Shown: piece after piece, positions 3,001-12,650 of the stretch | Layout of the letters: each line of letters opens with the position of its first letter | How positions within the stretch are numbered: position 1 is the stretch's first letter | DNA from: Arenicellales bacterium | Lineage (GTDB): Bacteria; Pseudomonadota; Gammaproteobacteria; Arenicellales; JAJDZL01 | Direction: 5' to 3' | NCBI GenBank assembly: GCA_965206345.1 | Contig: OZ242211.1 | Location: forward strand, 2,599,078-2,663,077 | DNA: 64,000 nt | Notes under the pieces: generated by a model | Databases searched by the model: none | Told to the model about the DNA's origin: nothing | The model's input: only the letters and a program-made list of their open reading frames with translations | Program-made: the position numbers and the translations under genes

Positions 3001-5315
3001 ACTACATTCGTTTGCTCTACGTAAGGTTTGGGATTCAATTCTGTCCGGAATGTCATGTCGAGATTCATGCTCGATCAATCGAATCCATTGTTCAACAGAT
3101 CATTCGCGAACGAATGAACACGAGGGTTAGCGTACTCGCTCCACTAGTAGTATCGCGCAAGGGGAATCATAATCCTTGGCAGCAGTGGGCCCTGAAACGT
3201 GGAGCGTCCTCTCTACTTGTGGATGGTGAACTGCATTCGACTCAGAATTGGAAGCCACTAGATCGATACCGTCTGCATAGTATTGATTTGCCAGTAGCGA
3301 CGATCGAATTGGGTCCGGATTACGCGTCTGCTAGAGCAAATCTAATAGCGGCAATTGACGAATCGTTGCAAATCAAAGATGGACATTTTCGTATTGCATA
3401 CCCCGCGCTGGATCAGGAAACCGAAGACCGTAATTTGGAACTTTTTTCTACCAGTCGATCCTGTACCAGTTGTGGGAGAGCTTTTGAAGAACTGGATCCA
3501 AGGCTGTTTTCGTACAATTCAAGTCAGGGTTGGTGTGACGCATGCCTTGGCACCGGATTGGCGATTAAGAATGCTGACAGCCAGGATAATGAGGACCCGG
3601 ACCACCTTACCGATGGTGAAATCTGTGGCACATGTGAAGGGCGAAGACTCAATCCCGAAGCGCTGGCTGTTCAGTTTCACGGAATAACCATTGATGAAAT
3701 GACTCGCTGGTCAGTGCGAGATGCCAGAATCAGGCTTTCCAAGTTGAGACTGACTGACCGTGAAAAGGTAGCAGCACAAGATATTTTGGCCGAATTGACT
3801 TCACGGCTTGCGTTTCTGGAATCAGTTGGACTATCTTATCTTTCTCTTGATCGTGCAGCACCAACGTTAAGTGGTGGCGAAGCACAGAGAATTCGTCTCG
3901 CTGCCCAATTGGGATCGAGTCTCTGCGGTGCGTGCTACGTGCTTGACGAACCGACGATTGGATTGCACAGTCGGGATAATCAGTTGCTGCTATCAGCTCT
4001 CGCATCGCTTAGGGACAAAGGAAATACGATTGTGGTGGTTGAGCATGATGAAGACACAATAGTTTCAGCTGACCACATCATTGATCTCGGGCCCGGTGGA
4101 GGCGTTCGCGGTGGTGAGGTTATTGCGACTGGGACGGTTCAAGAAATTCGCAAAAATTCTAGCTCAATTACTGGACGTATGCTGACGTCACCGTTACAGC
4201 ATCCTATGCCAAGAACCCGTGCAGCAGCGAATCCAAAAAACTCCATTGAAATTAGCGGCGTATTTCGACACAACCTACAAAAAGTCAACGTATCATTCCC
4301 GGTCCAGGCATTGATATGCGTAACTGGTGTCAGTGGCAGCGGAAAAAGTACGCTCGTTCGTGACGTGCTTTATCGAAATTTGTCAGCTGTACTATCACAA
4401 AGGCAATCTGATGAAATCGAACATGCGTGGGACTACTGTAGCAACATCACCGGTTGGAATCAGGTGCGTCGAGTGCTGGAGGTTGATCAGACGCCCATTG
4501 GCAAAACGCCAAGATCCTGCCCGGCAACATATGTCAATGTATGGCAAATTATTCGAAAGTTATTCGCAGAGACTGCGGAAGCACGACTTCGGGGGTATAC
4601 CGCATCAAGATTTTCCTTTAATGTAGCGGAAGGACGATGTCCAACTTGCGGGGGACAGGGTGAGAAGAAAATTGAAATGAACTTTTTACCTGATGTAAGG
4701 GTGCGATGCGAAAGTTGTAATGGCGCTCGATTTAATCAGGAAACGCTCAGCGTTCATTATCGAGATAAGACAATTGCTCAAGTTCTGGATTTCAGTGTCG
4801 AAGAAGCGCTGGAATTTTTCTCAGCACTGCCGTCACTGGAACGTGTTTTTGGTCTACTTGTAGATGTGGGACTTGGGTACCTGAGACTTGGTCAGCCTAG
4901 TCCGACATTGAGTGGAGGAGAGGCTCAGAGAATAAAGTTGGTTTCGGAACTCGCAAAGGCACTACCGCGTGATAATTACAAGATTCAGGCGGCTTCTCAG
5001 GCTAGACCTGTACTTGGGACTCTATACGTGTTGGATGAACCGACTGTTGGACTGCATGCAGCGGATGTCGAAAAACTGCTCAAGGTCATTCACGCCCTGG
5101 TTGATGCTGGCAATACTGTTGTTGTTATCGAGCACAATCTGGACGTGGTCTCAGAGGCTGATTGGATAGTTGATTTGGGTCCGGAAGGAGGCGATTCAGG
5201 AGGGAAGATAGTTGTAGAGGGAACTTTGGACAAATTAACGAAATCCAGACGCTCCCATACTGCCCGAGCCTTGCGAGAATTCAGACGAACTTCCCGTACC
5301 TCCGCCCGGAACTAG
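1..5315 (+). CDS. Tandem-duplicated UvrA-like ABC ATPase (two UvrA units in one polypeptide); the 5' end lies upstream of the window
   Basis: The frame is open from nt 3. The first residues [29 protein letters not shown] match the conserved UvrA RSTVGT-TEI-D-LRLLFAR block, so the ATG at 48 is internal. Unit 1 has CPNCG, [22 protein letters not shown], Walker A [9 protein letters not shown] and two LSGGE signatures. Unit 2 restarts near nt 2690 with [42 protein letters not shown] and repeats all modules (CPECH, [44 protein letters not shown] twice). Confidence 0.85.
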   Translation, partial: [1770 protein letters not shown]

Positions 5316-11984: not shown

Positions 11985-12650
11985 TTAAGTTGGGATCAGT
12001 CCAAATAATCCTGAGCGCGACATCTTTGGTAACATTGCGGCACTTTCTAGCAGTTTGACGGGCATATCAGGATCATCTACAAGATCAAACAGTGGTTTTT
12101 GGTCAGTCAAATCCCACATAACCTGCTTTCCATCAATGGGATAGGAGTATCCCGGACCCAATCGCCTGGTCATTCTCATCGATTGCTGCACTGCCCAACT
12201 TCGAACCATCAGGACAAATTGTTTAGTTGCATCTTCGACACCCAACCAGGCTGCAGATTCCAAAAACAGCGCTTCAACCAGTTTCTCCTCATCCATCCAC
12301 TGAATTGTCTGTTCATCGATTTCCCTGCCAACAGTGAGTACAAAAACCACCGCTTCAACTGATTGACTCAAGTATTGTTTGAATATCTCACTTTGCAGAT
12401 GAATTCCGTTGCCAAGTACTGCACCGCTATTGTCGACAGAATGTACATCGACAATTCGGTAGGAGACAACTGGTTTCGTTTTTTCGATGAATTTTTCCCG
12501 CGCTGTTAGCGCAGATGCGCGAATGACTTTTCTAACCTTCTCCAGGTTTTTGTATCCCTGAATTTTGAGTATTCCATCAATTTTCGGTTCCGGAATTTCA
12601 AGTTTCAGCGTTGTAGCCTGACCGCGAACCAGGTTCAGTGTCGTGCTCAT
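11985..12650 (-). CDS. Stand-alone protein resembling the MetH reactivation (AdoMet-binding activation) domain
   Basis: The C-terminal half aligns by eye with the E. coli MetH activation domain. VVFVLTVGREIDE..ALFLESAAWLGVEDATKQF..RRLGPGYSYP..LLESAAMLPKMSRSGLFG corresponds to YIGAFAVTGG..ALADRLAEAFAEYLH..IRPAPGYPACP..LTESFAMWPGASVSGWYF. Confidence 0.5.
   Translation of the reverse strand: MSTTLNLVRGQATTLKLEIPEPKIDGILKIQGYKNLEKVRKVIRASALTAREKFIEKTKPVVSYRIVDVHSVDNSGAVLGNGIHLQSEIFKQYLSQSVEAVVFVLTVGREIDEQTIQWMDEEKLVEALFLESAAWLGVEDATKQFVLMVRSWAVQQSMRMTRRLGPGYSYPIDGKQVMWDLTDQKPLFDLVDDPDMPVKLLESAAMLPKMSRSGLFGLIPT

Follow-up and report, generated by a model that had tools for sequence, protein, structure and literature searches.

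From which compound does a self-contained set of corrinoid-dependent methyltransferase genes in a respiratory proteobacterium take its methyl groups, and in which direction are they moved? The question is raised by seven minus-strand genes at positions 5235-12650 of the window, by which we mean the whole 64,000-nt stretch of DNA analysed here, taken from the metagenome-assembled genome (MAG) of an Arenicellales bacterium (GCA_965206345.1, contig OZ242211.1, positions 2,599,078-2,663,077 of the forward strand). The original prediction, made from the letters of the window, had described these genes as a corrinoid methyl-transfer operon of uncharacterised composition. By scanning one genome per GTDB species for the putative substrate methyltransferase of the operon (MT1), 67 related loci were found, and the neighbourhood of each was surveyed to ±10 kb, some contigs being short. 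The comparison reveals that the conserved unit is larger than the seven genes, which form its core, and also includes an orphan protein (o177), a probable divergent methylenetetrahydrofolate reductase (MTHFR-like), a small PF13769 protein and an arsenic module. With high confidence we regard this unit as a corrinoid/tetrahydrofolate (THF) methyl-transfer regulon; a functional tie to arsenic is likely, and that it specifically demethylates methylarsenicals is a tentative reading, with a chance that we put at somewhat short of even.

The methyl-transfer core and its conservation

The seven ORFs of the operon, listed from its 3' to its 5' end, are the following.

5235-5981, minus strand: GntR regulator with an FCD effector domain (GntR 2e-17, FCD 4e-21), last gene of the operon, present in 57 loci
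5981-6982, minus strand: COG0523/CobW-type GTPase with a His-rich tract (cobW PF02492 3e-45, 154.6 bits; CobW_C PF07683 2e-10, 41.1 bits)
7025-8965, minus strand: RACo-type reductive activase, 2Fe-2S plus ASKHA ATPase (Fer2, RACo_linker, Raco_middle and RACo_C_ter, 1e-12 to 1e-75)
8968-9705, minus strand: corrinoid (B12-binding) methyl carrier with a cap domain (B12-binding_2 PF02607 9e-12, B12-binding PF02310 3e-26)
9715-10884, minus strand: MT1, a 389-aa URO-D/MtaA-like methyltransferase (Pfam URO-D 7.5e-33), present in 66 loci at 73-99% identity
10931-11965, minus strand: MT2, a 344-aa pterin-binding TIM-barrel methyltransferase (Pfam Pterin_bind PF00809 2e-15, 57.6 bits against a cutoff of 25.5)
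11985-12650, minus strand: ORF221, 221 aa, which opens the operon, a probable homologue of the MetH activation domain in its stand-alone form, present in 60 loci

All seven frames are intact and lie exactly where the original prediction had placed them. Counted from the gntR end, the intergenic gaps measure -1, 42, 2, 9, 46 and 19 nt, and the GTG start of gntR overlaps the stop codon of cobW as TAGTG, with one G in common, so that the predicted range of -1 to 46 nt is exact as well. In the related loci, genes were placed by tblastn and a crude ORF caller, and gaps there are alignment-to-alignment distances. Two of the checks which the original prediction had proposed came out in its favour: Pfam puts six of the seven proteins above their gathering thresholds, and the neighbourhood survey finds the full set of seven genes in 50 loci out of 67, with the gene order of the window kept in 46. 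Since this synteny is kept in loci from different classes, the grouping goes beyond chance. Co-transcription of the genes is presumed. Conservation within the operon is very uneven, with minimum identities of 77% for the corrinoid protein, 73% for MT1, 57% for the RACo protein, 53% for MT2, 47% for GntR, 39% for the CobW-type GTPase and 33% for ORF221; in the MT1 alignment, 45% of the columns are invariant.

Carriers of the system are labelled as Arenicellales, Acidiferrobacterales, 'Muproteobacteria', Methyloligellaceae, Hyphomicrobiales, Rhodospirillaceae, Magnetovibrio, Kiloniellales, Limibaculum, Usitatibacter, Rubrivivax and Burkholderiales, a span of three classes (Gamma-, Alpha- and Betaproteobacteria) to which a single, perhaps mis-binned, Actinobacteria-labelled bin is added. 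The identity of MT1 to the window copy is 73-99% across the 67 loci, the best match (99%) coming from an Arenicellales (Gammaproteobacteria) MAG. Loci that are connected by horizontal transfer do not count as independent observations.

The architecture originally proposed, namely a substrate methyltransferase, a corrinoid protein, a pterin-dependent methyltransferase and an ATP-dependent RACo activase, is borne out by the Pfam domains, and the motifs quoted for it (GDMHDIG, IIGENFNATRK, SIDSS, NVSFGLPQR, HSCG, DIGTT, DIGTNGE, GSGLID and the His-rich tract) are all present in the translations. Judged from domains and motifs, then, all four canonical components of a corrinoid-to-THF methyl-transfer core are present with their cofactor motifs intact. 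The corrinoid protein carries the DxHxxG motif as GDMHDIG, with His129 invariant, is 77-100% identical across 62 loci and has 1y80, MttC and MtmC as its nearest solved relatives. MT2 is presumed to be the methyl-corrinoid:tetrahydrofolate methyltransferase; its top matches in the Protein Data Bank (PDB) are the MT-II of the Desulfitobacterium hafniense O-demethylase (4o0q, 2e-25) followed by MeTr (2yci/2e7f), and with 180 bits against NF005719 (cutoff 259) it is a divergent member of that family. The possibility, raised beforehand, that this protein is a dihydropteroate synthase (DHPS) or a MetH fragment did not hold up: a DHPS is excluded by the family scores together with the relationship to 4o0q and MeTr. 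The activase scores 437 bits against the NCBIfam model AcsV (cutoff 800), with the cluster cysteines C44, C50, C53 and C86 invariant and the DIGTT and DIGTNGE motifs conserved.

The core is extended by three further proteins, as had been proposed. For ORF221 the Pfam match to Met_synt_B12 (PF02965) is sub-threshold (E=0.026; 14 bits, cutoff 25), and a profile built from 20 orthologues matches the Thermotoga maritima stand-alone domain 1J6R over residues 28-170 with E=4.5e-7, which supports its description as MetH-activation-like. The CobW-type GTPase falls under the cutoffs both for true CobW (130 versus 332 bits) and for ZigA (103 versus 600), and so is an equivalog of neither; its CxCC motif reads GCICC, with C73, C75 and C76 invariant, and with its His-rich tract it is presumed to be a metallochaperone that would deliver zinc to MT1, or cobalt. 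The nearest NCBIfam model to the GntR protein is that of the phosphonate-utilisation-associated regulator PhnR_burk (110 bits, cutoff 271). An Rfam scan of the entire window detected no cobalamin riboswitch and no other RNA family, and a scan for consensus promoters and terminators returned fewer matches than in shuffled sequence and is hence uninformative.

MT1 is the presumed substrate:corrinoid methyltransferase. Its scores lie below the cutoffs of every related family (TIGR01463, 81.4 versus 235.4 bits; NF004889, 84.9 versus 244; MtaA, 66.7 versus 400). An identity as HemE, part of what the original prediction had named as fatal to it, is excluded by the score against TIGR01464 (25.4 bits, cutoff 302.95) and by the PDB relatives, of which MtaA (4ay7) is the first at E=2e-11. 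An AlphaFold2 (AF2) model of MT1 (pLDDT 75) is likewise nearest to the fold of MtaA, with UroD second and MetE among the weak matches. The N-terminal ~125 residues diverge from MtaA yet are conserved among the orthologues. Among the solved MT-I sequences of O-demethylases and Cdm there is no match to MT1, and CmuC is a weak tblastn relative (29% over one third of the protein). Beyond the 67 loci, MT1 homologues in the GTDB-species scan fall to 27-35% identity and belong to anaerobes, and the plasmid collection contains no close homologue, its top match having 26.5% identity; on these identities, MT1 forms a tight, isolated clade.

The only Cys and His residues that are invariant in the 66 MT1 orthologues are H51, H76, H88, H183, H273, C275 and H359. 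Relative to the residues that we take to be the zinc ligands of MtaA, the His-x-Cys pair is retained as H273-x-C275, and the position of the third ligand, the cysteine of 'APGCGI', aligns to 'SPSHYI', that is, to His359. The zinc motif proposed earlier, HSCG followed by a distant cysteine, thus needs correction in its last element, and His273, Cys275 and His359 are the candidate metal site of MT1.

This altered triad bears on a first alternative, according to which the operon would encode a cobalamin-dependent methionine synthase in split form, or some other S-methyltransferase acting on thiols, with MT1 methylating homocysteine or a thiol from methyl-Co(III). The operon does have a counterpart for every MetH module except the homocysteine domain, a split MetH with a RamA-type activase is known in Rhodobacterales (PMC12478193), and MtaA-like enzymes share zinc-thiolate chemistry with MetE, itself one of the weak fold matches mentioned above. 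However, besides the change in the triad, a separate PF02574 homocysteine methyltransferase stands beside the unit in seven loci, so that MT1 is not that module, and a housekeeping enzyme would not be expected in scattered MAG lineages, with a GntR/FCD regulator of its own and wired to aioBA, arsI and a MIP channel gene. We regard this alternative as very improbable.

Companion genes and a common upstream element

Three genes outside the operon are its near-constant companions: the PF13769 gene, found in 59 loci, and the genes for o177 and the MTHFR-like protein, found in 50 each. They are listed here together with the copies of a cis element that links them to the operon.

6998-7016, no strand assigned: cis element copy in the gap between the RACo and cobW genes, a candidate GntR operator or internal promoter
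12668-12686, no strand assigned: cis element GATATATTTTCGATATA, zero mismatches, 18-36 nt upstream of the ORF221 ATG
14783-15667, minus strand: probable divergent MTHFR, MetF2-like (Pfam MTHFR 1.3e-5, 25.1 bits against a cutoff of 24)
15719-16252, minus strand: o177, an orphan of 177 aa that shares an operon with the MTHFR-like gene (its AF2 model is a beta-sandwich)
16300-16316, no strand assigned: third copy of the cis element, one mismatch, in the promoter region from which o177 and the PF13769 gene diverge
16403-16693, plus strand: small PF13769 ('Virulence_fact') protein, the most constant neighbour (PF13769 found in the near-identical contig L082)

The MTHFR-like protein scores 34.9 bits against TIGR00676 (cutoff 293.7) and lies within a large family whose members are annotated elsewhere as MTHFR; it is presumed to oxidise methyl-THF to methylene-THF. 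The original prediction had remarked on a MetF-like gene 2 kb from the operon, and this gene proves to be part of the unit, being kept in the 50 loci and forming with o177 an operon that has the same upstream element. The o177 protein itself has no match in Pfam, in NCBIfam or among PDB sequences, and its family amounts to 54 clusters among 5.8 billion proteins, all 'hypothetical'. Its AF2 model (pLDDT 93) has a weak LecB-lectin-like fold match (TM-score 0.74, normalised on the target). Orthologues of o177 share one invariant Cys (C62) and were seen only beside this gene cluster. The PF13769 orthologue of the window gene scored 5e-14 against that family.

The element is a conserved AT-rich sequence, RATATATTNNNRATATA, made of palindromic halves of the type G(A/T)ATAT(A/T)C. 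It has eight matches in the 64-kb window, three of them inside the unit, where 1.13 are expected, and none of 100 shuffles reaches eight; the pattern was derived from the same loci, so counts across loci are descriptive and the shuffle test on the window serves as the independent control. Across loci, the element stands upstream of ORF221 in 45 (at 3-75 nt), of the PF13769 gene in 26, of MT1 in 18, of o177 in 14, of cobW in six and of a displaced MT2 in four, and it also precedes divergent SAM (S-adenosylmethionine)-methyltransferase and ferredoxin-reductase genes. In genomes of ~70% GC, the ORF221 element is among just one or two matches per ~20-kb locus, and the octamer [AT]ATATAT[AT] occurs in loci of 56-73% GC one to three times per ~20 kb, nearly always at the element positions. 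The presence of one element at the ORF221, o177/MTHFR-like and PF13769 promoters makes the operon, the o177/MTHFR-like operon and the PF13769 gene look like a single regulon, and the element would be the operator of the in-operon GntR/FCD regulator. FadR-type palindromes of the form TGG-N-CCA upstream of the operon, which were considered as an operator, are not conserved. Just upstream of arsR in the window (13140-13198) are two more ATATA-rich boxes (CTATATAATTAG...TCGATATATAG), which resemble the cis element, with no pattern match within two mismatches, and which may be the arsR promoter/operator or a degenerate copy of the element.

Arsenic genes, the methyl donor and the direction of transfer

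The 2 kb that separate the operon from the MTHFR-like gene hold arsR-arsI-aqpS (13199-14685, plus strand).

13199-13522, plus strand: ArsR/SmtB metalloregulator (NF033788, 58.6 bits against a cutoff of 55)
13552-13956, plus strand: probable homologue of the ArsI-type C-As lyase, a methylarsenite demethylase (NF041414 ArsI/CadI, 110.8 bits against a cutoff of 116)
14002-14685, plus strand: AqpS-type MIP channel, the arsenite/methylarsenite channel of ars operons (Pfam MIP 1e-29)

The ArsR protein has a C-terminal Cys-Cys...Cys arrangement, 'EECCVDEPNTAAAC', and 36% identity to the ArsR of a Sinorhizobium meliloti ars operon; the AqpS protein is 61% identical to the MIP inside an arsR-arsC-MIP-arsH operon on an S. 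meliloti plasmid. The six best PDB matches of the ArsI-type protein are all entries for Thermomonospora curvata ArsI, at ~1e-18, and the alignment conserves its vicinal Cys pair ('DCCHATMDK') and the His4, His59 and Glu111 positions, the roles of which we take to be those described for the ArsI structures. The original prediction overlooked these three genes, and its view that the methyl donor cannot be read was too pessimistic, as they and the linkage of aioBA, MIP and arsH in other genomes point to methylated arsenic.

Arsenite oxidase genes, aioBA, are present in 20 of the ~40 loci from outside the Arenicellales. In these related loci AioA reaches 987 bits against TIGR02693 (cutoff 359), AioB 170.5 bits against TIGR02694 (cutoff 95.65) and PF18465 is matched at 1e-34; the family features are in place, with 3Fe-4S Rieske_3 and molybdopterin domains in AioA and AioB as the Rieske small subunit. 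The AioA proteins linked to the unit are 69-85% identical to one another. In 17 of the 20 loci, aioB follows directly on the MTHFR-like gene on the same strand; the remaining three have a Rieske-ferredoxin gene or o177 in front of aioB. Where the contig extends far enough, aioB-aioA is followed by a pentapeptide-repeat gene, a MIP gene and sometimes a homocysteine methyltransferase gene, and this order is the same whether the genes are divergent from the ORF221 operon (in Alpha-, Beta- and Gammaproteobacteria and the Actinobacteria-labelled bin) or in tandem after gntR (in Rhodospirillaceae/Magnetovibrio). The pentapeptide-repeat protein, of ~320 aa and with a signal peptide, always lies between aioA and MIP (L024 2362-3321, L033 979-2286 and 14 other loci); no such partner is known to us in canonical aio clusters.

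The MIP of these loci, of 294 aa, is a system-specific orthogroup, with 56-88% identity among loci and at most 38% to any plasmid MIP, and 13 Arenicellales loci with no aioBA in the vicinity have kept it, with the MTHFR-like gene on one side and ORF221 on the other. In the subclade of the window, arsR-arsI-aqpS occupies this very slot, which looks like a non-orthologous replacement by genes with known arsenic function. ArsH is encoded in two loci (L057 and L041, with 74% and 71% identity to rhizobial ArsH), and an extra ArsR in four more. ArsI and ArsH are reportedly, from work of the Rosen laboratory, specific for methylarsenite and do not act on inorganic arsenic.

On this evidence we put forward, as a possibility held a little less firmly than demethylation of methylarsenicals as such, that the unit is the first known system to demethylate dimethylarsinate and/or methylarsonate, or other pentavalent or onium organoarsenicals, by means of Co(I) in oxygen-respiring bacteria, passing the methyl groups to THF for carbon and energy. 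MT1 would move the methyl group from the methylated arsenical to the Co(I) corrinoid protein. The likeliest donors would be dimethylarsinate, methylarsonate, trimethylarsine oxide or an arsonium compound such as arsenobetaine, since arsenic can leave each of them as As(III). Attack of Co(I) on the methyl group of a pentavalent or onium arsenical releases As(III) and is the reverse of Challenger-type oxidative methylation. MT2 would then hand the methyl group to THF, and the MTHFR-like enzyme would oxidise methyl-THF into the one-carbon (C1) pool; in the seven loci with a PF02574 module, homocysteine could be methylated instead. The RACo protein, using ATP and low-potential electrons, would rescue oxidised Co(II) together with the MetH-activation homologue, the His-rich COG0523 GTPase would load the metal site of MT1, and the GntR/FCD protein would govern the regulon through its G(A/T)ATAT(A/T)C-type element. 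Toxic trivalent products would be handled by the linked genes: methylarsenite, MAs(III), could be cleaved by ArsI in the window and oxidised by ArsH in some loci, the dedicated MIP could let As(III) out, and the periplasmic AioBA of other lineages could oxidise As(III) to arsenate. Dimethylarsinate, DMAs(V), would thus yield MAs(III), a substrate of ArsI or ArsH, and methylarsonate, MAs(V), would yield As(III), which would pass through the MIP to AioBA.

Several points weigh against this proposal. The substrate assignment is drawn from gene neighbourhood, and all 67 loci come from MAGs, none from an isolate. About half have no aioBA or ars genes within ±10 kb, some contigs being short, and one (L083) has instead an SBP_bac_5-type ABC importer beside gntR. 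Much of the linkage may derive from one ancestral island spread by horizontal transfer, for which reason the loci are not independent. Across the 67 loci, aioB generally has no copy of the cis element ahead of it, so that co-regulation of aioBA would need read-through from the o177/MTHFR-like promoter. MT1 has a single invariant Cys and no ArsM-like multi-Cys As(III) site, and its closest characterised relatives work on thiols and thioethers, not on arsenic. Methanogens, finally, are reported to demethylate trivalent dimethylated arsenic, DMAs(III), and not DMAs(V) (PMC10579292), which does not fit a simple SN2/As(V) scheme. How DMAs loses its methyl groups is described as unclear in that work, no enzyme for the step being known (PMC10579292), and corrinoid methyltransferases of methanogens are only suspected as arsenic demethylases (PMC10579292; bioRxiv 10.64898/2026.08.27.747368). 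A literature search returned no paper on this cluster, nor any that ties URO-D or corrinoid proteins to aio or ars genes, an absence that is not proof; the claim of the original prediction that the composition is uncharacterised stands to this extent, no biochemically assigned orthologue of the operon having been found.

The same observations lend some weight to a second alternative, in which the core chemistry is unchanged and the methyl donor is not an arsenical but dimethyl sulfide (DMS), methanethiol, methylmercaptopropionate (MMPA), dimethylsulfoniopropionate (DMSP) or another sulfonium, a methoxylated compound or a methyl halide, the arsenic genes being co-travellers of an island. MT1 is nearest to MtaA/MtbA/MtsA-type enzymes, which make or break methyl-sulfur bonds, and the loci without arsenic genes, the importer of L083, a BisC-family S/N-oxide reductase after gntR in L019 and the usual absence of the element before aioB all agree with such a donor. 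Yet hitch-hiking poorly explains repeated and differently built arsenic linkages across three classes: aioB stands straight after the MTHFR-like gene in 17 of the 20 aioBA loci, in a fixed order within two global arrangements, the 294-aa MIP belongs to this system, its slot was independently filled by arsR-arsI-aqpS in the lineage of the window, and ArsI and ArsH are reportedly methylarsenite-specific. A donor other than arsenic therefore seems to us unlikely, while being the most serious of the alternatives.

A third alternative retains arsenic and reverses the flow. Methylene-THF would be converted to methyl-THF, the methyl group would be loaded on the corrinoid protein by MT2 and passed on by MT1 to As(III) or MAs(III), giving a B12-dependent, SAM-independent arsenite methylation that would serve detoxification or the making of the antibiotic MAs(III). 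MtaA-type enzymes normally pass a methyl group from Co(III) to a soft nucleophile, the combination of MTHFR, a MeTr-like protein and a corrinoid protein also runs in the biosynthetic direction in MetH and the Wood-Ljungdahl pathway, and methylcobalamin is said to methylate arsenite both chemically and in methanogen extracts (McBride and Wolfe in 1971, Zakharyan and Aposhian in 1999). The adjoining arsenic genes would suit this scheme too, with ArsH or ArsI acting as self-protection. Three features lead us to favour the catabolic direction instead, namely the dedicated MetF2-like MTHFR, the control of the core operon by a GntR/FCD protein and not by ArsR, and the presence of ArsI, which would undo arsenic methylation by destroying its product; AioBA, similarly, would use up the substrate. 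A further pointer is the homocysteine methyltransferase found next to the unit in seven loci, as this enzyme and a catabolic-type MetF2 better suit methyl harvesting (PMC12478193), and MT1 lacks the As(III)-binding cysteine set of ArsM. Arsenite methylation by this unit is accordingly an improbable reading, and demethylation of methylated arsenic remains the one that we favour.

Neighbouring genes and relation to known systems

Other genes adjoin the unit in part of the loci. Rieske or Fer2 ferredoxins and an FAD reductase adjoin it in some, the reductase gene sharing the cis element. Eight loci have a cytoplasmic PhsA/DmsA-like molybdoenzyme with a DmsB-like protein. A pair of this kind, consisting of a cytoplasmic PhsA/DmsA/QrcB-like protein of ~703-712 aa and a DmsB-like 4Fe-4S protein, is seen in L087/L088 (5088-8942), L089 (5089-8963), L090 and also L033/L081 (17549-20255). 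The molybdopterin-family protein has no TAT signal, and the pair lies directly upstream of the MetF2-like MTHFR gene. A role as methylarsenate reductase was set aside because the same pair precedes a MetF2-like gene with RACo nearby, in the absence of MT1, in unrelated genomes, which suggests an electron-transfer partner for catabolic methyl-THF oxidation and not an arsenic enzyme. The cytoplasmic BisC/TorA-family reductase of L019 (Arenicellales; 15764-18082, directly after gntR; 937 bits against a cutoff of 1017) could act on an oxide substrate, either similar to dimethyl sulfoxide (DMSO) or trimethylamine N-oxide (TMAO) or an arsine oxide.

A PrmA/MTS-type SAM methyltransferase gene is divergent from the PF13769 gene and shares its element (L033 7899-8576, L084 7068-7787 and seven other loci); the protein has a weak match (E=3e-6) to the NCBIfam 'corrinoid protein-associated methyltransferase CpaM' and could take part in reductive re-methylation of the corrinoid. 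A hemopexin-repeat-like protein of ~236 aa lies between the MTHFR-like gene and the PF13769 promoter in 15 mainly betaproteobacterial loci (L067 5734-6444, L051, L052 and L057 among them), and an 83-aa zinc-ribbon protein occurs in 17 mostly alphaproteobacterial ones. In the window, positions 48-5315 (plus strand) encode a UvrA-like protein of 1755 aa that has additional ABC ATPase modules (UvrA_inter, UvrA_DNA-bind, six stretches of ABC_tran); its gene converges on gntR with an 81-nt 3' overlap and keeps this place beside the cluster in only some Arenicellales (57-93% identity). On the other side, a glycerate 2-kinase gene (DUF4147 plus MOFRL; 16690-17961, minus strand) adjoins the unit in 19 loci, all of them Arenicellales, and may reflect lineage synteny or a C1 assimilation of the serine-cycle type, which it would fit. 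Further away, a sugar-type ABC transporter (SBP_bac_1, two permeases, two TOBE ATPases) followed by Dak1/Dak2 dihydroxyacetone kinase (25950-33306, plus strand) is ordinary carbon metabolism, unrelated to the operon.

The operon follows the same logic of MT-I (URO-D superfamily), corrinoid protein, MT-II and activase as the O-demethylases (OdmABCD/Vdm of Acetobacterium dehalogenans, MtvABC of Moorella, Dhaf 4610-4612 of D. hafniense), the D. hafniense MT-II 4o0q being the best solved relative of its MT2. The analogy holds for the architecture only, since MT1 is nearest to the MtaA (methylcobamide:coenzyme M) clade and its sequence shows no detectable relationship to the O-demethylase/CdmB branch. 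O-demethylases are characterised mostly in anaerobes, whereas the hosts of the operon are respiratory Proteobacteria, and they lack its extras, that is, the MetH-activation homologue, the COG0523 GTPase, GntR/FCD, o177, PF13769, the MetF2-like protein, MIP and aioBA/ars. The methylcobamide:coenzyme M methyltransferases MtaA, MtbA and MtsA of methanogens (4ay7) are the closest characterised relatives of MT1 in sequence and fold and have the His-x-Cys (HSCG) pair in common with it. MT1 differs from them in its low identity (~20%, with scores far below the cutoffs), in the third ligand (Cys to His359) and in the divergent N-terminal ~125 residues, and coenzyme M metabolism is not expected in its hosts.

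The aerobic setting stressed by the original prediction stands, whereas its novelty does not, corrinoid-to-THF systems in aerobes being already established (PMC12478193; Cmu). In Ruegeria pomeroyi and Phaeobacter, MtgBCD with RamA, DUF1638 and MetF2 carries out an aerobic marine demethylation of glycine betaine that feeds a THF-linked C1 pool, and shares with our unit the corrinoid protein, pterin methyltransferase, RamA/RACo activase, dedicated MetF2 and link to homocysteine methyltransferase (PMC12478193). Its substrate methyltransferase, however, is of the MttB superfamily (PF06253) and not of the URO-D superfamily, its components are scattered and shared with methionine synthesis where the operon is a self-contained regulon, it has no arsenic linkage, and where it has DUF1638, of which there is no match among the proteins of the operon, the latter has the activation-domain homologue. 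The chloromethane-utilisation (Cmu) system of aerobic methylotrophs (CmuAB(C) with MetF2/FolD/PurU) likewise brings methyl groups from a corrinoid to THF with a divergent MetF2, but in CmuA the methyltransferase is fused to the corrinoid protein, the score of MT1 falls short of the mtaA_cmuA cutoff, and RACo, COG0523, GntR, MIP and arsenic genes are absent from Cmu.

Type 1 mlp clusters also combine MtaA-like URO-D methyltransferases of unknown substrate with a corrinoid protein and a RACE/Ram activase (PMC10418091). The operon is excluded from this type, as mlp clusters are restricted to obligate anaerobes, contain two or three Mlp paralogues and have no THF methyltransferase (PMC10418091), whereas the operon has one MT1 together with MT2 and belongs to Proteobacteria; the MT1 homologues of anaerobes are, as noted, distant. 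The established enzymes of the same element cycle, ArsM (SAM-dependent methylation), ArsI (an Fe(II)/O2 C-As lyase) and ArsH (a MAs(III) oxidase), make no use of corrinoid or THF. The ArsI and ArsH homologues beside the cluster would act on the predicted MAs(III) intermediate, and the only methyl group that ArsI takes off is the last one, that of MAs(III). Taken with these comparisons, the unit can be classed among the three-component corrinoid methyltransferases; what is new in it are the MT-I clade, the accessory proteins and, probably, the class of substrate.

Methylated arsenic, in the form of DMAs, MAs, arsenobetaine and their breakdown products, makes up a large share of the arsenic in seawater, marine animals and rice paddies, and the only demethylating enzyme that we know of is ArsI, restricted to MAs(III). 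The self-contained gene set described here, from marine, soil and freshwater Proteobacteria, is a concrete, clonable candidate for the missing methylarsenic demethylase. If the proposal is correct, it would amount to methylotrophy on organoarsenicals and would supply a long-missing step of the arsenic demethylation cycle. If the substrate is not arsenic, the cluster would still represent a new branch of URO-D methyltransferases, very highly conserved and changed in its metal site, that comes with a presumed metallochaperone, a regulator, a predicted operator and two orphan proteins of its own, and a further case of corrinoid-dependent methyl harvesting in aerobes.

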